NCBI GenBank assembly: GCA_035477455.1
Contig: DATIKP010000078.1
Location: 1-11,850 of the forward strand
Reading direction: 5' to 3'
Source of the DNA: Atribacteraceae bacterium
GTDB lineage: Bacteria > Atribacterota > Atribacteria > Atribacterales > Atribacteraceae
DNA: 11,850 nt
The notes beneath the pieces were generated by a model, which searched no databases, was not told the DNA's origin, and saw only the letters and a program-made list of their open reading frames with translations. The position numbers were made by a program, and so were the translations under genes. Positions 101-11,801 of the stretch are shown piece by piece (the stretch's first letter is position 1; each line of letters begins with the position of its first letter).

Positions 101-460
101 TCAGTCCCCGGATTCACTTTCCTGGACGAGAGAGCCTGCGAGGTTCCGGTACAGATATTCCGCCAGCCCGATACCGTTGGCCCGGCTCGCCGACCTGGCA
201 ACCTCATCGACGAACATGTCTTTAAACCATCGCTCGTGCTTACTCAAAAAAGGGGATTCCGTGACCAGGACCGGCTGGATCGAACGCTTGAACATAAAAC
301 CGAGAAAGTACGATTCAAATTCACCGCAGGCTTTTTTCAATCCATCCTGAAGCGGCCCGCTTCCCTTCCTGTCGAGCACCAAAAGCGGTTCTTTGGGTAT
401 TCGATCGATTCGTAGCATGGTAAGCTCCTTCGTATTCCGGAGGGTATTATTACTCGACAA
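101..460 (-). CDS. flgJ: Flagellar rod-binding protein (FlgJ N-terminal rod-binding-domain-like, stand-alone, 119 aa)
   Basis: ORF 101..460(-). The motif ...GEFESYFLGFMFKRS... and the C-terminal ...ANGIGLAEYLYRNLAG... match the rod-binding family pattern (FEALFLqqMLKSMR ... GGLGLAdmL). It sits directly downstream of flgI with an 11-bp overlap, as in flgI-flgJ operons. No muramidase domain is present. Confidence 0.7.
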   Translation of the reverse strand: MSSNNTLRNTKELTMLRIDRIPKEPLLVLDRKGSGPLQDGLKKACGEFESYFLGFMFKRSIQPVLVTESPFLSKHERWFKDMFVDEVARSASRANGIGLAEYLYRNLAGSLVQESESGD

Positions 461-1568
461 TCAATTCCCCCTGGAGGGCGCCGGCTTTATTCAGCGCCTG
501 TAAAATAGCAATTAAATCCCGGGGACCGACCCCCAACGCATTCAAAGACATCACCAAATCGTCAATAGTCGTCGTACCCTCGATCCTGGACAGTCCCACT
601 TCTTCTTCCACGACCTCCACTTGCGTTTCCGGAACCACTACAGTTTCTCCGGGCGAAAAGGGCGGTGGCTGAGATACCAGAAAACGGGTTTGAATGGTCA
701 CGGTTAAATCCCCATGAGAGAGGGCCACCGGAAGAATCCGCACGTTCCCTCCGATGACCACCGTGCCGGTCCTCTCGTTCACCACGACCCGGGCGGGTAC
801 GTCAGGAGTAACCGGGATTTCCCCGATCAGCGCCATCAGGGACGATACCCGGTGCAGGTACTGGTCCGGTATGGTGATTTCAATCCGGTTGGCATCGAGG
901 GCTCGGGTCCGCCGACCCCCGATTTCATTGCTGATCGCCTGAGCGATCCGGGTGGCGGTGACAAAATCCGGGTTCTGTAACAACAGGGTAATCGTCCCCC
1001 GGGTCGGGTCATAAAATCTGGTGTCCACCGTTCGTTCGACAATCCCACCATTAGGAATCATGCCCACTGTCGGATGGTTACGTTGCACCTGGGCTCCGCC
1101 GCCGCCCGCGGCAAAACCACCGATGGAAAGCGGTCCTTGAGCGACCGCATAGACCTTTCCATCCACGGCTTTCAGCGGGGTCACCAGGAGGACGCCCCCC
1201 TGGAGAGTTTCGGAATCGCCCAGGGAGGAGACGCTTACATCAATGGTTTCCCCCGGCCGGATAAAGGGAGGAAGTTCGGCGGTCACGATCACCCCCGCAA
1301 CATTCCGTGACCGGATCTGATGTGGATCGACCGTGATCCCCAGTAGCTGGAGCATGTTCGCCAAGCTCTGATTGGTGAACAGACTGTTACGACTGTCCCC
1401 GGTCCCGGACAAACCCACCACCAGCCCGTACCCGATTAGCTGGTTCCCCCGTTCCCCCTCAAATCGGGTGATATCTTTGATCCGGACCGTTTCCGCGTTG
1501 GCGGTGAACGTGAGAAACAGGCTGATCACCAGAAGGAGAGAAGCTCTTCTAAGTGTATTGATCACCAT
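450..1568 (-). CDS. flgI: Flagellar P-ring protein FlgI (372 aa, N-terminal signal peptide)
   Basis: Full-length ORF. The N-terminus MVINTLRRASLLLVISLFLTFTANA is a signal peptide. It is followed by ...IKDITRFEGERGNQLIGYGLVVGLSGTGD..., and the C-terminal ...GELIVE is typical of FlgI. The ATG at 1568 has a G-rich SD just upstream (aaaggggtg). Confidence 0.93.
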   Translation of the reverse strand: MVINTLRRASLLLVISLFLTFTANAETVRIKDITRFEGERGNQLIGYGLVVGLSGTGDSRNSLFTNQSLANMLQLLGITVDPHQIRSRNVAGVIVTAELPPFIRPGETIDVSVSSLGDSETLQGGVLLVTPLKAVDGKVYAVAQGPLSIGGFAAGGGGAQVQRNHPTVGMIPNGGIVERTVDTRFYDPTRGTITLLLQNPDFVTATRIAQAISNEIGGRRTRALDANRIEITIPDQYLHRVSSLMALIGEIPVTPDVPARVVVNERTGTVVIGGNVRILPVALSHGDLTVTIQTRFLVSQPPPFSPGETVVVPETQVEVVEEEVGLSRIEGTTTIDDLVMSLNALGVGPRDLIAILQALNKAGALQGELIVE

Positions 1569-1615
1569 CGCACCCCTTTATCCTTTATCCTCTAACGGAC
1601 ACCGAACCGGTCTTC

Positions 1616-2224
1616 CTAAAAAAGGAAATCAAGAACGGATCCAAAAATGCCGTTCAATAGGCCGACCAAGCCACTGCGCTCCCTCGGCCGCAGAGTCCCA
1701 TCCAGTTTGATCACCGCATCGAGCACCTGGGTGGACAAAACCGAATTGTTCGCCGTAATGTCTCGGGGGCTGACTACCCCTTCAATGGTGAGGATTTCCC
1801 GCTGCTTGTTGAGGATCATCTCCTTGCTCCCCTTGATCCGGAGATTGCCGTTTTCCAGAACCTCGCTGACCTGGCAAGTAATCACCCCTCTCAGAGAAAA
1901 GTTCCGACTTTCCCCCCGTTGTGCCTGCCGGGAAGTCTCGCTGGATAAACCGGCAGGAGGAATGAAATCGAAGATCCCCGCTCCAGCCGCCAGGTTGATG
2001 TTGGTGCTCCGTCCCCCGCTGGATTGAGCATCACCGGAACCGGTTGTGTGCTCACTGACAATCACCATGATCGGATCCCCCGGACGCGAGGCTCTGAAAT
2101 CCGAGTAGGGATCCGCAAACCAGCCGTCATCGCTCCAAAGCGACTCCCCCCGGACCGGAAGGATCAGGCCACCGGCCAGAGTCGCACCGAGCACCAGGCT
2201 AAGTAATAACCGGTCATGTCTCAT
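1616..2224 (-). CDS. flgH: Flagellar L-ring protein FlgH (202 aa). It has no lipobox cysteine.
   Basis: Full ORF. The FlgH-like core GDPIMVIVSEHTTGSGDAQS...NLRIKGSKEMILNKQREILTIEGVVSPRDI is present. The start ATG overlaps the flgA stop (ATGA, 2221..2224). The signal peptide has no Cys; the only Cys in the protein is far downstream. Confidence 0.88.
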   Translation of the reverse strand: MRHDRLLLSLVLGATLAGGLILPVRGESLWSDDGWFADPYSDFRASRPGDPIMVIVSEHTTGSGDAQSSGGRSTNINLAAGAGIFDFIPPAGLSSETSRQAQRGESRNFSLRGVITCQVSEVLENGNLRIKGSKEMILNKQREILTIEGVVSPRDITANNSVLSTQVLDAVIKLDGTLRPRERSGLVGLLNGIFGSVLDFLF

Positions 2225-3246
2225 CGTATCTCCACCTCCACCAATCTTTCCCCAATGACTTGGGCCTGAACCCGTTTCCGGGATTCCGGATTCTCTACGA
2301 CAATGCTCTCTCCCAACGATCCGTTTCCCCGGGCACGGCCGGTGGCGGTCACGGTAACCAAGCCATTCCTGGCTACCATGGTTACCAAGTCCCCCCGCTC
2401 GATCAAGGTTTCCTTCTGAACCTTCTCCGGAGAGATTACTTCACCGGGACGCATAGCCCGTCGGACCTCAAGCCCGATGACCTCATTCAGAGAAGCGAAA
2501 CCCTGATCATTACCCGCGGACAACGCTTCCGGCAAGACCTGCACTTGGTCGGCGCCAATTACGTCACCCGGCCGGAGATGGTCTATGGTTCTGACGGTGT
2601 CCCGAAAAACCTTGAGGCCAAAGGTCACGCTTTCCCGCTGTTCGTAGCCTCCCGCTGCGCTCACGGTAAAGTGAGCGGTCCCCCGGCCCCACGGCTTAAG
2701 TCCGGAAGGAATGAAGAGTTGGAGGGTGCTCTCGGGAGGAACGGTCAGGTCCTCGGTGGCTCCCAGCGGCTGGATTTCCACCGCTTGGGCGAAGGGAAAG
2801 AGGCGTAAGAGTTCTTCTTCAATCATGGTGCTCATGGCTGACCAGGGGATAATCTCACCGGCAAAGACCACGCGAGAATACTCCGCTCCGGAAAAATGGA
2901 TAAAAGCGAGGCCGGGAATCCTTCTCGCCGCCACCCGGTCGAAGATTTCCTGGGGACGGATCATCCGGGCTTCCCCGGGAGCGGGGACATAACCCAAGTC
3001 GAGCCGGCGTAGTTCCCCCTCCCAGTAAACATCCGGATAAGAAATCTCCGCCACTTCCCCGAGAACGAGGCTCTCGGCCAGGAGCGTCACGTTCGGACGG
3101 AGAGCAACAGACAGGGTCAGGGCCCAGACCGGTCCTACCCAGCCCCCGAGAAAAAGCACAATACCGGCGAATAACCAACCCACTGCGTATTTCATCGCGC
3201 GCATCCGGTTACCGCTTGAGATTGTTCGAAATCTGGAGCATTTCAT
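2221..3246 (-). CDS. flgA: Flagellar P-ring assembly chaperone FlgA (SAF-domain C-terminus). The start is uncertain: ATG at 3246, 3204 or 3195.
   Basis: The C-terminal ...RGDLVTMVARNGLVTVTATGRARGNGSLGESIVVENPESRKRVQAQVIGERLVEVEI matches the FlgA/SAF pattern. The longest ORF overlaps flgG by 38 bp. The internal start at 3195 (MKYAVGWLFAGIVLFLGGWVGPVWA) gives a clean signal peptide and a 14-bp gap after the flgG stop. Confidence 0.85.
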   Translation of the reverse strand: MKCSRFRTISSGNRMRAMKYAVGWLFAGIVLFLGGWVGPVWALTLSVALRPNVTLLAESLVLGEVAEISYPDVYWEGELRRLDLGYVPAPGEARMIRPQEIFDRVAARRIPGLAFIHFSGAEYSRVVFAGEIIPWSAMSTMIEEELLRLFPFAQAVEIQPLGATEDLTVPPESTLQLFIPSGLKPWGRGTAHFTVSAAGGYEQRESVTFGLKVFRDTVRTIDHLRPGDVIGADQVQVLPEALSAGNDQGFASLNEVIGLEVRRAMRPGEVISPEKVQKETLIERGDLVTMVARNGLVTVTATGRARGNGSLGESIVVENPESRKRVQAQVIGERLVEVEIR

Positions 3247-3997
3247 CAGCTGTGGTTATAGCCTTGGCGTTGACTTCGTAGGCCCGCTGGGCACTGATCA
3301 TCCGCACCATCTCTTTGACTATCTGAACGTTGGACATCTCCAGAAAACCCTGTGCCAGGCTCCCAAAGCCAGCCAGGCCGGGTACCCCCATCTGTGGTTC
3401 TCCAGAGGAGGCGGTGGCCCGATAGAGGTTCCGCCCCAGGCTGGTCAGGCCGGCCGGATTAATGAAACGTACGAGTTCGATCACGCCGACTTCCTGGGGT
3501 TCGATTTCCCCGGGAATCTGGACGGACACGATCCCATCCTGCCCAACGGTTATCGATTCCGCCTCAGGGGGAACAGTAATCGGCGGTTCCAACAAAAACC
3601 CATCATTGGTCACCACCTGTCCCAGGGCGTCGAGTTTGAAAGAGCCGTCCCGGGAATAGGCGATTTCACCATCCGGCAGCAGAATCTGGAAAAAGCCGTT
3701 TCCTTCAATGACCAGATCAAGGGGGTTGCGGGTCTCATACATGTCTCCCTGAAAAAACATTTTCTGTACGGCCGCCGGGCGCGTACCCAGACCGACTTCA
3801 ATGCCTACCGGCACCTGGGTCGCTTCCGTGGTCGGAGCGCCGCTGACCCGAATGGTCTGATACATAATATCCTGAAAATCCACCCGGCTCTTTTTGAAGC
3901 CCGTTGTATTCACATTGGCGAGATTGTTGGCGATCACGTCGATATCCAGTTGTCTGGACATCATTCCGGTCGCCGCGGTCCACAAAGCCCGTATCAT
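3209..3997 (-). CDS. flgG: Flagellar basal-body distal rod protein FlgG (262 aa)
   Basis: N-terminal MIRALWTAATGMMSRQLDIDVIANNLANVNTTGFKKSRVDF and C-terminal ...VNAKAITTADEMLQISNNLKR are canonical for the rod/hook FlgG family. An SD ggggaggga lies 5 nt upstream of the ATG on the minus strand. Confidence 0.93.
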   Translation of the reverse strand: MIRALWTAATGMMSRQLDIDVIANNLANVNTTGFKKSRVDFQDIMYQTIRVSGAPTTEATQVPVGIEVGLGTRPAAVQKMFFQGDMYETRNPLDLVIEGNGFFQILLPDGEIAYSRDGSFKLDALGQVVTNDGFLLEPPITVPPEAESITVGQDGIVSVQIPGEIEPQEVGVIELVRFINPAGLTSLGRNLYRATASSGEPQMGVPGLAGFGSLAQGFLEMSNVQIVKEMVRMISAQRAYEVNAKAITTADEMLQISNNLKR

Positions 3998-4078
3998 GGA
4001 TACTCCCTCCCCCGTTCAGGCCTCCGCCGTGCGGTCCGGCCTGGTTATTCTCTCTGTCGATCGACGACGGACACTCTC

Positions 4079-4837
4079 TTAACGAAGCCGGGCGATATCG
4101 TTCACGGCCCGCTGTAAGGCCAAATCCTGGGACTGGATCGCCCGTTGCGCGGCTTCAAATTTACGCAGAGTCTCGATCATGGTCACCATAGCTTCAACAA
4201 CGTTCATATTCGAGCGTTCAAGCGAGCCCTGCACGACCCGAAAACCAACCGCCTCCCGAGGTTCAACCAGATCGTCAACCGGGAAAAAGTTATTGAGACC
4301 GCGCTTCACGAGGAGATTCCGATCGTCAAAATCGACTACCCGCAGTTGGTCGACCTCCTCATCATCGACCCGGATCCTCCCCTGGTCATCGACCAGGAAC
4401 GTTCCCCCCGGAGGAAGAACGATCTCCCCGGTTGTCCCCAATACCGGGAACCCATCCACGTTTACCAGGCGGCCATCGGTATCGAGGGCAAAATTCCCCG
4501 CCCGGGTATACCCCTCACCTTCCGGGGTGGCGACCACAAAAAACCCCCCTCCCTGCAGAGCGAAATCAAGATGATTTCCGGTAGTCTCGATCCGCCCTTG
4601 CGAAAAATCGGTCTGGTGTTCACTAATCAGCTGGGCCCCTATCGACAGACTTCCGATGGAGATCGGCGACTGCTCATCGGTAAACCGGGAGATCGCCCTT
4701 TCGTAAACCGCTTCCGCTCGCAAGAGATCCGCCTTGAACCCCGGTGTCTCGATATTTGCCAGGTTATTGGCCAGCACTCCCTGCTTGATTTCGAATACGT
4801 TCATTCCCGATGCAGCGGTATAAATTCCCCGGATCAC
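4079..4837 (-). CDS. flgF: Flagellar basal-body rod protein FlgF (FlgF/FlgG family). The start is called at GTG 4837 rather than at the ORF-track start 4933.
   Basis: From the GTG the protein begins VIRGIYTAASGMNVFEIKQGVLANNLANIETPGFKAD, the conserved FlgF N-terminus. A perfect SD AAAGGAGG lies 7 nt upstream of the GTG at 4835..4837 (minus strand). The extra 32 aa of the ORF-track model have no family resemblance. Confidence 0.85.
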   Translation of the reverse strand: MIRGIYTAASGMNVFEIKQGVLANNLANIETPGFKADLLRAEAVYERAISRFTDEQSPISIGSLSIGAQLISEHQTDFSQGRIETTGNHLDFALQGGGFFVVATPEGEGYTRAGNFALDTDGRLVNVDGFPVLGTTGEIVLPPGGTFLVDDQGRIRVDDEEVDQLRVVDFDDRNLLVKRGLNNFFPVDDLVEPREAVGFRVVQGSLERSNMNVVEAMVTMIETLRKFEAAQRAIQSQDLALQRAVNDIARLR

Positions 4838-5083
4838 TCGCTTGCCTCCTTTCTGGGTTATAACTGGACATGAAGTCAAGAATTCTCGTTCTGTTAGTCT
4901 CTGTTGGAAGGTATGGATAAATATACTTGCCAAAAATAAGAATCAAAACAGAGCCTGCCTTTTCAGAAAAACCATTACATACCATCCTCACCCTCTCCCT
5001 CCCCCCTCCTTACCACGGACTTCCCCCTGAACCAAATCTTCCATTGCCATCTCGACAAAGGGACAGGAAGAAACCGGGCGGTA

Positions 5084-5092
5084 TGATATAAT
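5084..5092 (+). promoter_or_regulatory. Extended -10 element TGaTATAAT, a candidate promoter for the divergent DUF3782-like gene
   Basis: tgatataat at 5084..5092 is a perfect TGnTATAAT match. It lies about 60 nt upstream of the ATG at 5151/5160. No clean -35 was found, but an extended -10 can work without one. Confidence 0.4.
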
Positions 5093-5159
5093 AGGTGCTG
5101 CAGAATATAGGCCTGATGCCCGCTCGCTGATCGTCCCGGCCGGAAGGGAGATGAAAAAC

Positions 5160-5837
5160 ATGCAAGAAGTGAAAGAAAAAGTCATTGATCTCGAAAAGAC
5201 CTTAAATGACTTCATCCTCCATACCAACCTCGGTTTTGCCAAGGTTCAGAATGCGCTCATCGAACAACGTTGGGCTCTGGACAAACTCAAGGAAGAGATG
5301 GTGGCTTACCGGGAACATTCGGCTCAGGAGATGAAAGAATTCAAGGAAGAGATGGTGGGCTCCCGCCGGGAACTCAACAAGATGTGGGGGGACCTGGCCA
5401 ACCGCCTGGGGACCGTGGCGGAAGACATCGTGGCTCCCAACCTACCGGTGATCGCCCGGCGGTATTTCGGCTGTGTCGGAGAACCGCTGACTCTGTATGT
5501 GCGCTCCTTCCGGTTCAAACGGAAAGACCGGTCCCAGCAACGGGAGTTCGATGTAATCGCCGAGTACGAAGAAATCGTGCTCTTCAACGAAACCAAGACC
5601 ACGTCCCGGCAAAGCTATATCGATGACTTTCTCGCCTTTCTCCCCCAACTCCCGGACTACTGGCCGGAGTTCACGGGAAAAAAGATCATCCCCATCTATG
5701 CCGCCCTGTATATCCCGGAAAACCAGGTGGCCTACGCCACCCAGCGGGGTCTTTACGTTTTGGCCCTGCGTGGAGAAACCATGGATCTCCTCAACTACCA
5801 TGCGGTCAAACCGGTCGAAGAACCACTGAGCGACTGA
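5160..5837 (+). CDS. Hypothetical protein with an N-terminal coiled-coil and a C-terminal PD-(D/E)XK-like nuclease fold. It resembles the DUF3782-type family. An alternative start is ATG 5151.
   Basis: Residues 1-75 are heptad-rich (KEKVIDLEKTLNDF...LDKLKEEMVAYREH...FKEEMVGSRRELNKMWG). Nucleotides tcaaggaagagatggtgg are duplicated at 5287..5304 and 5341..5358. The C-terminal part has ...REFDVIAEYEEIVLFNETKTT..., a D-x(12)-E-x-K arrangement. The KMWGDLANRLG...V pattern is what I remember of the Thermus/archaeal DUF3782 paralogs. The GGGAG SD is spaced 9 nt from ATG 5160. Confidence 0.65.
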   Translation: MQEVKEKVIDLEKTLNDFILHTNLGFAKVQNALIEQRWALDKLKEEMVAYREHSAQEMKEFKEEMVGSRRELNKMWGDLANRLGTVAEDIVAPNLPVIARRYFGCVGEPLTLYVRSFRFKRKDRSQQREFDVIAEYEEIVLFNETKTTSRQSYIDDFLAFLPQLPDYWPEFTGKKIIPIYAALYIPENQVAYATQRGLYVLALRGETMDLLNYHAVKPVEEPLSD

Positions 5838-6293
5838 GCGATCCTTTCGTTTATCCCACCCGCAACGTGACCGGGCGGGGTCCTGCCACTGGAACAACTT
5901 CCAAAAGAAGGGGGTCAACCGGATATAACCGATTTTTTGCATGATCCTTCCTCTATCCATCGCTTCCCACCTTCTTCGCCTGCGGCGAAGATTTCTGCCA
6001 GTGCCGCCCGGTACCGGGGGCACATAGGGACCGTTCTTCTGTTCCAGAGGGACGTGGTCGTTTTTCCGGTAGGGCGGGCGGCGGGCCTAAGGAGATCCCC
6101 CGCCTTTACCCTTTACCCTACGCCCAGGAAGGCCCGGCTCCAGTCCGGAACCCCATCTCCCCGGGAGAGGTGCGTAACTTCTCGCTGGCTGGTATCCTTT
6201 TCATGGGTGGATGGCCCAACTCTTTAGATTTCCCTCAAATGTACTGTAGCACAACGGCCATCCACTTTTTGTTTTTACAGGAATTGTAAGACA

Positions 6294-6349
6294 GATTTTA
6301 CTGCAAAAACTCATTTCACCGAGGCCCCGTTGCCATCAGCAACGCCTCA
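6294..6349 (-). repeat. Copy B of the 56-bp inverted repeat; see copy A at 1..56
   Basis: Manual reverse-complement alignment gives 54/56 identity. It lies at the junction between GC-rich (left) and AT-rich (right) DNA. Confidence 0.8.
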
Positions 6350-6401
6350 TCTGGCATTTTCTTGCACGCATCAATGACCACGTCCGGTTGCAGTGCTGCT
6401 G

Positions 6402-6428
6402 AAAAGGCCATCCTTGGCCTTTTTACTT
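6402..6428. terminator. Possible bidirectional intrinsic terminator: aaaaGGCCA-tcct-TGGCCtttt followed by tac
   Basis: A 9-bp perfect stem (core GGCCA/TGGCC) with a 4-nt loop. Both strands have T-runs after the stem. It is short, so this is a weak call. It lies downstream of the DUF3782-like gene and of repeat copy B. Confidence 0.3.
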
Positions 6429-6488
6429 CGAAAATGCGGTGATTTCGGCGGCTGATTCAGGCAGCTCAGGCCCAGGCTTCCTTCGTTC

Positions 6489-6502
6489 TTTTGCAGCAAA
6501 AT
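6489..6502 (+). repeat. Third, partial direct copy of the repeat core: TTTTGCAGCAAAAT, a 14-bp exact match to 42..55 that includes the 13-bp palindrome
   Basis: Exact 14-mer shared with 42..55. The following bases are loosely similar (aatcaa(a)gat...gatct). Confidence 0.45.
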
Positions 6503-7277
6503 TACTTATTGCAGTAGAATCAAGATATGATCTAAACGGATCAAGAGAAAAGTCTTAACAAAATATCTTTTCTATGTTATCTTTGAATTAAGTGGTAAGC
6601 TTTTGGAGTTTTTTGATGGCTACAACCACAACAAAAGGTTGAAGAAAATAGATACCTCGCCTTTACAGGCGGGAAGTGCCCGCTAGATTAAATTATAAAA
6701 CACAGCGGAATACCTAAAAGAAACCAAAGATATAGTCTTACAACGTATCGTTATCTAACAATTATAAATGAATACCATATCAATCACCGGGATTTTTGTG
6801 CGAACCGGTTGTATTATGCGGTTTTTTATGCCGTCAGTGCCGCGTTGACCAACCGGAACCAGCACTAGCGGAAAACTTTAGAATCCGGGTTGCATTTCAG
6901 CGAGAATTTGTTAAAACTAATTTATTCTCCTCTTATGGCGGAATTATACGACGCATTACTTTGTGACCGTGAAGAAGCCGATACATGGTTTATTCGGAAT
7001 TCGATCCAAAAATTTTGCAGGAGGAATCGACTCAATTTAAAGAGTTCCTTAATGTTTTTCTTTTCAAGAGTCAGTACAAAAAGAAGAGCATTCAAAAAAA
7101 ATATTTGTAAGAGGTGAATTTAAGCCTCCGGTATGTTTATAGTGGATAACGGGGAAAAGGAGAACATTGATCGCCGTTCCATGACTACTTCTCTCTTGTT
7201 GACTTGATCATTAATTTTAGGGGGCCAGTCAGATGATGGGTCAAAACTACTAGCGGGTGAGACGGTGAAGGAGCAAA

Positions 7278-10271
7278 ATGCGTAAGGGAGAGAGTTTCAG
7301 CGATATTCTCATTCAAGCCCTGCCGGTCTTCTTCGTCGCTATCGATGTCGATGGCAAGACGATGATGATGAATGAGGCGATGCGAAACGCGCTCGGCTAT
7401 ACCGTTAATGAGGTGTTAGGAAAGGATTATCTGACGAATTTCGTCCCCCAGAGTGACCGCGGATCGCTCTCCCAAATATTCGAAAAACTGGCAGGTTCGC
7501 GCGAGCCGATGGTAAACGAGAATCGTGTGCTGACCAGGGACGGCCGAGAACTTCTCGTCGAATGGCATGGCCGGCCGATCTTCACCGAAGAAGGCGAATA
7601 CGACTTCTTCTACGGGATAGGGATCGACATCACCGAACGGAAGCGGAACCAGAGGAAGATCGCGCACCTTAACCTTGCACTGCGCGCCATCAGTAACGTC
7701 AACCAGTTCATCGTCACCGAGAAGGAGCGCGATCGACTGGTACAGGGTGTCTGCGACAGGCTCAGCGAGGCGCACGGCTATCATACCGCCTGGATCGGTC
7801 TACTCAATGAAGAAAAAGGCCTTATTACGGTAGGACAGTCCCCCTCAAGCCAGGAGTCCATAGCGCCGACCGCCCATCTGCTGCGCGGTCGGTTGCCGAT
7901 CTGCGCCCAGAAGGCACTGGCGCAACCTGGAGTCCAGGTAAGCGCAGAGCCACATGCAGAGTGTGCTGGCTGTTCTCTGTCCGGCACGCATCGTGGTCGG
8001 GGAGTGATGGCCATCCGGTTGGAACATGCGGGAAAGGTCTACGGAATGCTCACTGCGTCCATCCCCGCCGATTTCATTTTCGATAAGGAAGAGTACGAAC
8101 TATTCGCTGAAGTCGCGCTGGACATCGCGTTTGCCCTGAGCAACATCGAGCTGGAAGCTAAGCGCCAGCAGGCTGAGGAAGCCCTCACCCGCAAGGTGCA
8201 AGAGCTGGATGCCCTTAACGCAGCCTCGCAGGTGGTGAACGCCTCTCTCGATCTGGATCAGGTGTTGGGAAAGATCGTGTCGCTGGCGAAAGAGGCGGTG
8301 GGCGCCGATTACACCAGCATCCTGCTGGTCGATGAAAAAAGCGGCACGGTGCGTAGCTTTGAGAATTTTCCAGATGTACCGTCAATCGAGGATCGCGCTC
8401 AGGAGCATGGCCTTACCCGTCTGGTCATGGGCACAGGACAGATGGTGATCGTCGATGAGATCGGTGAGGACGGTACGATTGTCCCGGAACTGGGTGCCGG
8501 GGTGCCGCGCCTGGTCAATCCGCATATGGTGGGGACAAATATCAAGTCGGTAGCCTATCTGCCGCTAACCGGCAAGGCCGGTTCGATTGGAGTCCTCCAC
8601 CTGCGCAACCTGCGGCCGCAAGCATTTCGTGGTCAAGAAACGCTGCTGACCACCTTTGCCAATCAGGCGGCTATTGCCGTAGAGAACGCACGGCTGTACG
8701 AGACGGTCTCCCGGGAACTCACCGAGCGCAAGCGAGCGGAGGAGGCGTTGCGGAAGAGCGAAAGACGTCTTCGGACAATGAACAGGGTGCTTGCGAAGCT
8801 ATCGCGAAGTATGAAGATAAAAAACGGCGATCCGGGCGCCTTCCTGAAGGAGATTACCGAGGTTGCGGCCCGCACGCTCGAGGTTGAACGGGCCAGCATA
8901 TGGTTATACGATGAAAAAGGTATAAAGATTCAGTGCCTGGACCAGTATGAACTGGGTGCCGGAAGACATGCCCAGGGCTTCGAGCTGGTTCAGGCAGACT
9001 ATCCCGCTTACTTTCGGGCCTTGGAAGAGGAGCGCGCTATCGTGGCCGACAATGTACTCACCGACCCCCGAACCAGAGAACTTTCGGAGTCTTACCTTTT
9101 TCCTCACGGTATTACCTCCATACTCGATGCCCCGCTTCGGTTGGGCGGCCGAACGGTAGGGGTCATCGCTCATGAACATGTCGGGCCCGCTCGCCGGTGG
9201 ACGCCGGATGAGCAGAATTTCGCCGGATCGCTGGCGGATTTCGTCTCGCTGGCCATGGAAGCGCAGGAGCGCTGGCAAGCGGAGGAAGCGCTGGCGGAGT
9301 CGCAGTGGAAGATAGAGAACCTGAACAAGATAACCCGCCGCTTGGCGGTTTGCGCAACGGAAGATGAAGCCTATCGATTGACTATGGAGGCGGCGGAACG
9401 AATCCTGGGGTTCTTGCTCTGCTTCCTGGATATCGTGGAAGGAGACCGGATGGTGGTGAAAGCGACCTCATCGGAATTGCCTCCCGGGACGGCCGTGGAG
9501 AGGTCTCTGGCGGAGGATGAACTGGCGGCCAGGACCTACCATACCGGTAAAACGATTGTCTTTGGTAGTCCGGATGAGGTTCCCGAAGCCAGGCCGGCAA
9601 GGAAGGATTTCCGCTCGGGGATCTGCGCGCCGATTGGCGATATCGGGGTTTTTCAGGTCGTTGCCACGGATGTCGGTGCCTTTACCGAAGATGATGTACA
9701 CCGGCTTGAGCTTCTGCTCGGACAAACCGCCGAAGCGATCAAGCGGATTCGTCTGCAGAACGAACTGAGGGAACAGGCCATCCGCGATCCGTTGACCGGG
9801 GTCTACAACCGCCGCTACTTCACCCAGACAATCGAGCAGGAAGTCTCCCGCGCTGTGCGGCATAAGCGGCTGATCGCCTTCCTGATGATCGACGTCAACC
9901 GGTTTAAGGAGATAAACGATCGCTTCGGCCATCAGACCGGTGATCGCGTTCTGCAAGCGGTGGGAAGACTTCTTGCTCAGCAGGTGCGCGAGGAAGACAT
10001 CGTGGTCCGCTACGGCGGTGATGAATTCCTGATTGTTCTGCCCGAGACTGATGGCGGAGAGGTAGACACTGTAAAAAAGCGGATCGGTACAGCGATTGCC
10101 CGGATTAATGAAACGAGCAAGTTGATCGACTTTCCGGTTACCCTGTCGCTTGGTTGTGCTTACTGGAATCCGGGTGGCTCGGAATCGATCGAGGAAGTTC
10201 TGGCCTGGGCGGACCAGCGGATGTATGGGGAGAAACGGAAACAGGGTTCAGGCCATAGGTCAAAACCATGA
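7278..10271 (+). CDS. Multidomain diguanylate cyclase: PAS, Cys-containing GAF-like domain, three GAF domains and GGDEF (997 aa)
   Basis: SD GAAGGAG lies 4-5 nt before the ATG. The N-terminal PAS region covers about aa 8-125. A GAF-like domain of about aa 140-290 carries C159, C209 and the CAGC motif (C229/C232, nt 7962..7973). Classical GAF cores lie at about aa 310-480, 510-670 and 690-820, separated by coiled-coil linkers. The C-terminal GGDEF domain starts near aa 836 (RDPLTGVYNRRYF). The motif R-Y-G-G-D-E-F is at nt 10008..10028, and the I-site RxxD (REED) is at nt 9987..9998. Confidence 0.93.
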   Translation: MRKGESFSDILIQALPVFFVAIDVDGKTMMMNEAMRNALGYTVNEVLGKDYLTNFVPQSDRGSLSQIFEKLAGSREPMVNENRVLTRDGRELLVEWHGRPIFTEEGEYDFFYGIGIDITERKRNQRKIAHLNLALRAISNVNQFIVTEKERDRLVQGVCDRLSEAHGYHTAWIGLLNEEKGLITVGQSPSSQESIAPTAHLLRGRLPICAQKALAQPGVQVSAEPHAECAGCSLSGTHRGRGVMAIRLEHAGKVYGMLTASIPADFIFDKEEYELFAEVALDIAFALSNIELEAKRQQAEEALTRKVQELDALNAASQVVNASLDLDQVLGKIVSLAKEAVGADYTSILLVDEKSGTVRSFENFPDVPSIEDRAQEHGLTRLVMGTGQMVIVDEIGEDGTIVPELGAGVPRLVNPHMVGTNIKSVAYLPLTGKAGSIGVLHLRNLRPQAFRGQETLLTTFANQAAIAVENARLYETVSRELTERKRAEEALRKSERRLRTMNRVLAKLSRSMKIKNGDPGAFLKEITEVAARTLEVERASIWLYDEKGIKIQCLDQYELGAGRHAQGFELVQADYPAYFRALEEERAIVADNVLTDPRTRELSESYLFPHGITSILDAPLRLGGRTVGVIAHEHVGPARRWTPDEQNFAGSLADFVSLAMEAQERWQAEEALAESQWKIENLNKITRRLAVCATEDEAYRLTMEAAERILGFLLCFLDIVEGDRMVVKATSSELPPGTAVERSLAEDELAARTYHTGKTIVFGSPDEVPEARPARKDFRSGICAPIGDIGVFQVVATDVGAFTEDDVHRLELLLGQTAEAIKRIRLQNELREQAIRDPLTGVYNRRYFTQTIEQEVSRAVRHKRLIAFLMIDVNRFKEINDRFGHQTGDRVLQAVGRLLAQQVREEDIVVRYGGDEFLIVLPETDGGEVDTVKKRIGTAIARINETSKLIDFPVTLSLGCAYWNPGGSESIEEVLAWADQRMYGEKRKQGSGHRSKP

Positions 10272-10393: not shown

Positions 10394-10579
10394 TCATCCT
10401 GCATCTTTCGTCATTTTTATATTCTTTTTCCTTTGCTTTACGCATTCGGTTAAAAGGTATTCAATTTGCCCGTTGATGGAACGAAAGTCATCTTCCGCCC
10501 AAGCCGCCAATTCCTTCCAAAGAGAAAGCGACAACCGCAATAACAACTGCTTTTTATCTCTGTCGTCGTTGGGCATCAT
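10394..10579 (-). CDS. Ribbon-helix-helix (Arc/CopG/MetJ-like) DNA-binding protein, about 61 aa
   Basis: ..[41 protein letters not shown].. fits beta-strand plus two helices (compare RLPeELheaLkeaAeaegRSlNaEIvarLe). The ORF-track start at 10582 is TTG; the first ATG is at 10579. It lies 17 nt after the SPFH stop codon on the same strand. Confidence 0.65.
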
Positions 10580-10596
10580 CAAGGTTCTTCGTTTAA

Positions 10597-11616
10597 CTAT
10601 GAATACAAAGTACCACTGTTGACAATCGGCTGGACGTCCCGATTTCCGCAGAGGACCACGAGTAGATTACTGACCATTGCCGCCTTGCGTTCTTCGTCGA
10701 GCTTTACGATGCCGTTCTCACTCAGTTTGGTCAGTGCCATTTCCACCATACCCACCGCGCCTTCCACGATCAACTGCCGGGCATCGACTATGGCTGAAGC
10801 CTGCTGTCTTTGGAGCATGGCGGCGGCGATTTCCGGTGCGTAGGAAAGATGGGTAATGCGGGCCTCCATAACTTCCAGTCCGGCCATCTCCACTTTTTCC
10901 TGAATTTCTACCCGGAGTTTTTCCGCTACCTCCTGACTGCTGCCGCGTAAAGACATTTCACTGTCTTGGTCAGGTGTGTCGTAGGGATAGTTCCGAACTA
11001 TGTTACGCAGCGCGGAGTCACACTGTATGGAAAGAAACTCCTTGAAATTGTCGACATTAAATACCGCCTTGGCTGTGTTAACTACTTTCCAGATTACAAC
11101 CACCCCTATAATGATCGGGTTGCCCAGTTTGTCGTTTATTTTTTGCTGGTCATTGTTTAGCGTAATGGCTTTCAGCGAGATGACCTTACTCGGTGCGGAC
11201 AGGCGCTGAGCCTTGTCCAGTCCGGCCGACAGAATAGCGGTAGCAATGCCAGTCGTGGAAGCGGCCGGATTCAGGGCGCTGACAAAGGGATTGACAAAGA
11301 AAAACCCTTCGCGCTTAAGCGATCCGTAGTATTTTCCAAAAAGGGTCAAGACCAGCGCCTCATTAGGACGCAGTACTTTCAACCCGGCAAAGATGATGGA
11401 TCCGACAAATAGATAAGCAAGCCCTGCAACGATCAAAATGGTGCCAAGTGCGTTATCCCCGCCGGCTTCAAATCTCATAATCCCTCTAACCATTGCCGCG
11501 ACTGCGGCTCCCATGAGGATTATATTGAGGAGCAAAATGGGCATGCCGGCCATGGCTGGCGGGCGGATTTCCTCGTGATGCACCAGGCCTTCACGTACTA
11601 TGGCTTTTTCAGACAT
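10597..11616 (-). CDS. SPFH / band-7 (stomatin-prohibitin-flotillin-HflKC) domain membrane protein, about 339 aa. The start is called at ATG 11616; the ORF-track start 11622 is TTG.
   Basis: Two N-terminal hydrophobic helices ([38 protein letters not shown]) are followed by [30 protein letters not shown]... and a long SPFH-like core. Helical C-terminal segments follow ([26 protein letters not shown]...). The SD AGGAGA lies 9 nt upstream of ATG 11616. Confidence 0.85.
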
Positions 11617-11801
11617 AATCAATCATCTCCTTACAATATGTATTTGATATTATAATAATATTATTTATATAGTATGATGGAGCCACATAATTGTCAAGTG
11701 TTTATTGCACAGGATGTAATTGCTGCGTACTCCGGAGCAAATCGCCCGGTGTTCCGGCCGAAGCCGGCCGCCTCCGGGTTTATGAGCAGCGTACGCTATC
11801 C

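Follow-up and report, generated by a model that had tools for sequence, protein, structure and literature searches.

Does a gene that faces the flagellar rod operon of an atribacterial genome encode a flagellum-linked protein, or a nuclease that came to lie there by chance? The gene lies on an 11,850-bp stretch of DNA, the complete contig DATIKP010000078.1 of an Atribacteraceae metagenome-assembled genome (MAG), which is called the window below. Its product was identified as a member of family DUF8196 (PF26618), with a predicted coiled-coil stalk at the N-terminus and a predicted PD-(D/E)XK nuclease domain after it. The features on which the argument depends are listed here, with residues numbered throughout in the 228-amino-acid (aa) frame.

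5160..5837, + strand: coding sequence of the DUF8196-family coiled-coil PD-(D/E)XK protein, 225 aa plus stop codon; an alternative ATG at 5151 would give 228 aa

5154..5411, + strand: N-terminal helical stalk, a predicted coiled coil, residues 2-87 in the AlphaFold model

5284..5365, + strand: in-frame stalk repeat in two 28-nt copies (5284-5311 and 5338-5365), located by a repeat finder

5415..5789, + strand: PD-(D/E)XK nuclease-fold domain, residues 89-213

5421..5426, + strand: codons gaa gac for E91-D92 in the first core helix; E kept in 140 and D in 141 of 145 relatives

5550..5552, + strand: codon for D134, the 'D' of PD, in strand 2; D in 144 of 145 relatives

5589..5597, + strand: codons for E147-T-K149, the (D/E)xK element, in strand 3; at position 147, 132 of 145 relatives have E and 8 have D, and 142 keep K149

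The open reading frame (ORF) at 5160/5151-5837 on the + strand is genuine. The ORF list gives it as 5151..5837 (228 aa), and the NCBI call starts at ATG 5160 and yields 225 aa; the NCBI protein (P0001) is 100% identical to the window protein. An earlier reading of the letters alone (the initial annotation) had described a protein of 226-228 aa.

The fold of the C-terminal domain was examined in the AlphaFold model and by two fold searches, all of which backed a PD-(D/E)XK fold. The model contains the alpha-beta-beta-beta-alpha-beta core of the superfamily, with E91 in helix 89-106, D134 in strand 130-138 and E147/K149 in strand 142-148. The same positions stood out in the family alignments: E91, D92, D134, E147 and K149 were invariant or near-invariant among 38, 113 and 145 relatives, with E91, D134, E147 and K149 invariant in two of the three alignments. 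The set of 145 consists of clusters that are mostly 30-45% identical to the query and lie below about 50%. The D...ExK arrangement named in the initial annotation (EFDVIAE...LFNETKT) is thus present, with 13 residues from D134 to E147 as read from the sequence, and E91 joins D134, E147 and K149 as a further near-invariant position. Profile searches against the PDB returned coiled-coil noise only for the whole protein, and for the nuclease domain two non-significant matches only (best E = 0.25, to a formyltransferase). Because these sequence searches found no solved relative, the assignment rests on fold and motif. These two independent lines identify the product as a predicted PD-(D/E)XK nuclease at the level of fold and motif, and metal-dependent phosphodiester cleavage is its most likely activity. 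Structure prediction followed by a fold search, which the initial annotation had proposed as a check, recovered the nuclease fold, and the architecture that it had described, a stalk with a C-terminal PD-(D/E)XK domain, was borne out by model, fold searches and conserved E...D...ExK residues alike.

PD-(D/E)XK folds have in many cases been put to use as binding modules, and the window protein could in principle be a catalytically dead, structural coiled-coil protein that retains a nuclease-like fold. We consider this very improbable, since at least 140 of the 145 relatives, which lie below ~50% identity, retain the E/D/ExK set, as would be expected if selection maintained an active site.

The family to which the protein belongs was established from the precomputed Pfam annotation of the identical NCBI protein. 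PF26618 (PF26618.1, DUF8196) is assigned to P0001 and to most of the 440 homologues found at E<=1e-3 in a large protein database, for which the UniRef name is 'DUF8196 domain-containing protein'; the nearest non-identical relative is 59% identical. A profile of the nuclease domain matched 1,983 clusters (50% identity) at E<=1e-3, of which 811 remain at E<=1e-10 and 273 at E<=1e-30, and nearly all of the best 150 clusters carry the domain at or near the C-terminus, with a tail of median 9 aa and maximum 118. Local scans of the protein with Pfam, NCBIfam, PADLOC and PHROGs gave nothing above threshold; the local Pfam copy apparently holds no PF26618 model, as family members went unmatched too.

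The initial annotation had called the protein 'DUF3782-type'. That label fits the architecture and is wrong as a family assignment: DUF3782 (PF12644) scored 15.0 bits against a gathering threshold of 24.4 (E = 0.028, residues 49-108), and it was rejected as the family of the window protein in favour of PF26618. DUF3782 is also not among the families listed for the 38 closer relatives. It is reached by 4 of the 145 diverse DUF8196 relatives at E<=1e-3 (best E = 5e-6), and NERD is weakly matched by one of them. As judged from these profile matches, DUF8196 and DUF3782 do have a link, an indirect one that fits a distant relationship. The PF26618 annotation means that DUF8196 is already catalogued, though solely as a domain of unknown function, and a literature search found no paper naming it, in line with the earlier statement that such proteins have no assigned function. 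The window gene is an ordinary new member of this catalogued, uncharacterised family.

The N-terminal part of the protein was modelled by AlphaFold as one unbroken helix of 86 residues (residues 2-87, block pLDDT 69-89), in agreement with the 75-aa coiled-coil N-terminus proposed earlier. Within it, the two copies of the 28-nt direct repeat are 86% identical and share the exact 18-nt core TCAAGGAAGAGATGGTGG; by our estimate, about 0.001 exact 18-mer pairs would be expected by chance in 11.85 kb. The copies are spaced by 54 nt (18 aa), in frame, and encode (L/F)KEEMV(A/G). The 18-nt DNA repeat reported in the initial annotation is therefore real, but the 18-aa internal duplication drawn from it is not a clean one: only ~6 of 18 residues match between the two units ((L/F)KEEMV..R), so the stalk is better described as having a repeat with an 18-residue period.

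The same pattern was found across the family. The first ~30 residues of the stalk are fairly conserved; after them come FK(D/E)EMxx heptads or 18-residue units in varying number, the F and M of the heptads being spaced 4 and 3 apart in the family alignment. Among the 145 relatives the N-terminal extension is 4 to 221 aa long (median 92). Two homologues of 214 and 279 aa (P0003 and P0005) are set apart by 65 residues of 18-residue units, in surrounding DNA that is ~92% identical. These alignments indicate that the number of stalk repeats changes quickly.

Two loci from closely related assemblies were compared, L001 and L002, the latter from a Dethiobacter MAG. Between their intact DUF8196 copies there is a difference of 65 aa, made up of 18-residue stalk repeats, and L002 carries a second, frameshifted copy at 10815-11416, 2 kb downstream of the intact one. 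The comparison therefore points to recent duplication, decay and repeat expansion.

The distribution of DUF8196 was investigated in a scan of 185,579 species genomes, one genome per species, which yielded at least 587 loci across many phyla, the best 80 of which were taken further. Carriers include anammox Brocadiaceae, Beggiatoaceae, Desulfobacterales (Desulfonema, Desulfamplus), Thermodesulfovibrio and other Nitrospirota, together with Cytophagales, the Chlorobi group, Chloroflexota, Spirochaetota, Bacillota and one Heimdallarchaeota MAG. Some genomes hold several copies: a Thioploca MAG has at least five on four contigs, a tandem pair included, Desulfonema magnum, a Dethiobacter MAG and a Thermodesulfovibrio MAG have two each, and anammox bacteria are also among the multicopy genomes. 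The expansion into paralogs that the initial annotation described was thus found in some genomes, but its cyanobacterial part was not, as no cyanobacterium occurs among the best 80 of the at least 587 loci.

The surroundings of these genes showed no recurring partner. When the ORFs lying up to 4 kb away were clustered for 79 loci, nothing recurred beyond generic superfamilies, and a Pfam scan of 117 immediate neighbours returned 164 families, none of them more than five times. No PADLOC-DB v2 model matched the window protein at E<=1, and when the PADLOC models were run on the 117 neighbours, none was matched by more than four, with no enrichment of defence genes; the four-member matches (AriA, mad3, mad8) probably correspond to four ABC_tran/AAA_21 ATPase neighbours. 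Membership of a known anti-phage system and residence in a defence island were rejected on these grounds.

The individual contexts were varied. Toxin-antitoxin genes (PemK/MazE and HicB) and an IS3 transposase surround the three closest homologues (58-59% identity), of which two belong to an islet that breaks up a type IV pilus cluster. The gene keeps a stable position among housekeeping genes in four Kuenenia assemblies, and a Thioploca copy adjoins priA.

One explanation for such a distribution is a selfish mobile nuclease, of the homing-endonuclease or Rpn/YhgA type, that would spread or persist by cutting DNA. Multicopy and tandem occurrence with one frameshifted copy, a neighbourhood that is not fixed, the IS3 transposase beside the closest homologue and a MITE-like palindrome 457 nt downstream in the window would all suit it. 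However, paralogues of the same genome are alike across the ORF only, their DNA similarity ending there, with no common flanks and no terminal repeats; tblastn found 0 matches in 50,697 phage and 72,556 plasmid records, and there was no PHROG match. The 56-nt repeat that forms one end of the palindrome occurs in 0 of 86 related loci, and the Kuenenia position is stable. A transposable or homing element was rejected for want of shared flanks, terminal repeats and phage or plasmid carriage, and we regard the wider idea of a selfish nuclease as unlikely.

A structure-specific repair or recombination nuclease with a role in genome maintenance, comparable to NucS/EndoMS or a Holliday-junction resolvase, was also considered. 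The D-x13-ExK spacing, which we take to be like that of Hjc-type resolvases, the stable residence among Kuenenia housekeeping genes and the Thioploca copy beside priA speak for it. Against it, the family is very patchy (at least 587 loci among the genomes scanned), a genome may hold several paralogues, one copy has decayed to a pseudogene, none of the related Atribacterota loci that were examined carries the gene, and repair-gene neighbours do not recur. Such a role appears quite improbable to us. The selfish, defence or RNA-processing role that the initial annotation had thought suitable is a putative one, and no signal of a defence island, mobile element, phage or plasmid was seen in these searches. 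The overall picture is of a self-sufficient, patchy accessory gene with fast turnover, which bears no typical mark of a transposon, prophage gene or known defence island.

We now return to the nuclease on a stalk and set out how it might work. A long N-terminal alpha-helical stalk, built of variable 7- and 18-residue repeats, would carry the C-terminal PD-(D/E)XK domain. Stalks would pair or bundle in parallel and so bring two or three nuclease domains together, and the assembly would act as a divalent-metal-dependent endonuclease on nucleic acid, most probably DNA. The gene would be a stand-alone accessory gene with a conflict-type role, in defence or addiction, and not a housekeeping one. 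The nuclease fold, the conserved motif, the variable stalk, the absence of a partner, the patchy multicopy distribution and the insertion at a synteny breakpoint upstream of flgF were observed directly; nuclease activity, oligomerisation of the stalk, the DNA substrate and the conflict role are what we infer from them. Taken as a whole, parallel stalks that assemble two or three domains into an active metal-dependent endonuclease with an accessory conflict-type role are the reading we favour, with somewhat better than even confidence.

Several results weigh against it. Neither the PADLOC searches nor the immediate neighbours link the gene to defence, and the tblastn searches returned no phage or plasmid copy. 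No solved structure of any relative was detectable by sequence in the PDB profile searches. The GC content of the window gene matches that of its neighbours, so there is no compositional trace of recent transfer. In addition, the published evidence for trimers concerns stalks of the nonad type, and the bacterial representatives have no nonads (PMC4786415).

That evidence comes from the closest published counterpart, and a literature search found no other work touching such an architecture. Hartmann et al. (2016, eLife 5:e11861; PMC4786415) describe DUF3782 as a family that pools coiled-coil stalks of prokaryotic PD-(D/E)XK endonucleases, with nonad beta-layers in crenarchaeal representatives that are absent from bacterial ones, and with trimeric structures for nonad-type stalks. 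Like the window protein, these endonucleases have an N-terminal coiled-coil stalk and then a PD-(D/E)XK domain, and their bacterial stalks are plain, without nonads. The window protein, as read from its sequence, differs from the nonad stalks in having no [aliphatic]-A-T-K-x-[DE] beta-layer motif. Within its own family, PF26618, it shows the common arrangement of stalk and C-terminal domain and nothing different.

Comparison was also made with minimal PD-(D/E)XK domains of solved structure, namely AF1548 (1y88), Can2/Card1, N.BspD6I/R.BspD6I, NucS and the FokI cleavage domain. Identity to the window protein was 9-19%, with no match at the HMM level. CARF sensors, DNA-recognition domains or partner subunits direct the nucleases of this set, whereas the only other module of the window protein is a coiled coil. 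A looser likeness is offered by the coiled-coil nuclease tandems CoCoNuT, described as a branch of multi-gene McrBC systems, which belong to type IV restriction (Bell et al. 2024, PMC11090510). CoCoNuT and DUF8196 both combine long coiled coils with nuclease domains, a conceptual likeness among prokaryotic conflict systems; unlike CoCoNuT, DUF8196 consists of one gene, lacks conserved neighbours and has no PADLOC match.

A bolder extension of the favoured reading is that DUF8196 is an uncatalogued single-gene conflict system, in which the length-varying stalk would serve as a repeat-number 'ruler' or sensor that holds the nuclease inactive or targeted, and which would have multiplied by preference in bacteria that are filamentous or multicellular or have large genomes (such as Beggiatoaceae, Desulfonema, anammox bacteria, Chloroflexota, Chlorobi). 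We put this forward as a speculation and think it has a small chance of being right. The window locus is in itself minor: it adds one Atribacterota member to DUF8196 and removes a spurious flagellar link. The family is of greater interest, as it comprises ~2,000 clusters of a stand-alone predicted nuclease with an intact active site, a stalk whose length varies between near-identical genes, and no partner gene. A biochemical study of any one member would assign a function family-wide.

Some further neighbourhoods of DUF8196 genes were recorded. In the Dethiobacter-type assemblies (L001 and L002) the gene interrupts the type IV pilus cluster, and in five loci that are apparently anammox (Brocadia group; for example L035, 3720-4154) a GspG-type pseudopilin gene follows it at a distance of 63-281 nt. 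Together with the flagellar site in the window, these make three surface-appendage neighbourhoods, each probably one lineage-specific position. In 11 of 79 loci, Kuenenia included, GGDEF/HDOD-type proteins are encoded no more than 4 kb from the DUF8196 gene, as a raw count. Six loci (for example L056, 1578-2162) contain, within 1.3 kb, a protein of ~190 aa that by eye looks like a Uma2/DUF820-type orphan endonuclease.

The upstream region of the window gene bears on both its start codon and its supposed tie to the flagellar operon. Two elements were located there:

5142..5150, + strand: Shine-Dalgarno-like purine run GGAAGGGAG, read from the sequence

5084..5092, + strand: candidate extended -10 promoter element TGATATAAT, a perfect TGnTATAAT by motif match only

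The purine run ends 0 nt from ATG 5151 and 9 nt from ATG 5160, and in the family alignment the N-termini of the homologues align to MQEVKEK. ATG 5160 is favoured as the start because GGAAGGGAG lies 9 nt upstream of it and the homologues begin at the equivalent of MQEVKEK. The element TGATATAAT, which the initial annotation had seen as a near-consensus extended -10, is in fact a perfect match, at the motif level, and the sole one across both strands of the window, where ~0.4 would be expected by chance. The main argument for its candidacy is its placement 68 nt upstream of ATG 5160. A consensus scan gave a GGGACA-16-TATGAT site at 5060-5087 that overlaps it.

The gene stands opposite flgF (4079..4837, - strand, 252 aa, identical to the NCBI call), as the initial annotation had described, and is separated from it by a 322-nt divergent intergenic region. 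flgF heads the rod/ring operon, and the protein might on this account be flagellum-linked, co-regulated with the rod operon through the shared intergenic region; copies near pilus or pseudopilin genes in two other lineages would also suit such a link. Within 4800-5200, however, no sigma-28-like or sigma-54-like motif was found, only the extended -10 of sigma-70 type. No flagellar gene adjoins a homologue in the 79 genome loci or in five individually inspected contexts.

The operon itself was compared with its counterparts in other genomes. The relatives of FlgF are all from Atribacterota, and the order flgF-flgG-flgA-flgH-flgI-flgJ is kept in two Atribacterota MAGs, in Atrimonas thermophila and in one further MAG. 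Beyond flgJ the related operons continue with a small ORF, flgM and flgN, and with flgK and flgL where the contigs reach. At the other end, flgF is the first gene in every related locus whose contig extends upstream, and the genes upstream of it differ: DUF6062/CrcB in one lineage, an AP endonuclease and an aminotransferase in another, and DUF8196 in none of the five related Atribacterota loci with upstream sequence. A translated comparison with the Atribacterota loci found similarity over 140-4883 and none from there to 7278, and no remnants of ancestral neighbours were detected in 4838-7278. Since similarity ends at 4883, the spot upstream of flgF is a synteny breakpoint, with the nuclease gene as a lineage-specific occupant. 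The juxtaposition is coincidental, given that homologues never adjoin flagellar genes, that the upstream genes of relatives differ and that synteny stops; by these comparisons the gene came to lie beside the rod operon through genome rearrangement. The significance that the initial annotation had attached to the flagellar position is accordingly lost, and a flagellar role is hardly credible.

The remaining feature that had seemed unusual is a 56-nt inverted repeat with arms at 1-56 and 6294-6349, 96% complementary. The second arm is the left end of an imperfect palindrome of ~212 nt at 6294-6505, which looks MITE-like because it forms a far better fold than shuffled controls do (z = -4.84). 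The first letters of the contig already lie within a second, inverted copy, directly after flgJ, at a point where related genomes go on to flgM; the inverted copy probably explains the assembly break there. The initial annotation had wondered whether each paralog is followed by the same repeat. It is absent from all 86 related loci examined, has no exact match in JGI metagenome contigs, and was rejected as a companion of DUF8196. The two features behind the unusual look of the locus, the flagellar position and the repeat, are thus incidental.

The rest of the window was surveyed for other features, and Rfam and tRNA scans gave nothing credible. Between the stop codon of the nuclease gene and the palindrome lie 456 nt of GC-rich DNA (5838-6293) with no convincing ORF and no Rfam, tRNA or Atribacterota match. 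The segment at ~6400-7250 is AT-rich (37-43% GC against 55-59% around it) and contains ORF fragments at ~6760-7060 on the + strand, in two frames and with an in-frame stop. Stitched together, these fragments matched only Pfam HEPN, below threshold (15.7 bits against 22, E = 0.017), and they may be a decayed HEPN-type toxin gene. Downstream, 7278-10271 on the + strand encodes a diguanylate cyclase of 997 aa with PAS, GAF (four stretches) and GGDEF domains. Towards the far end of the window lies the following gene:

10597-11622, - strand: SPFH/Band 7 protein, 341 aa

A 62-aa ORF without a Pfam match follows it on the same strand (10394-10582), 14 nt past its stop codon. A 24-nt direct repeat, 88% identical and probably due to chance, lies inside flgG (3454-3477) and the GGDEF gene (10100-10123).

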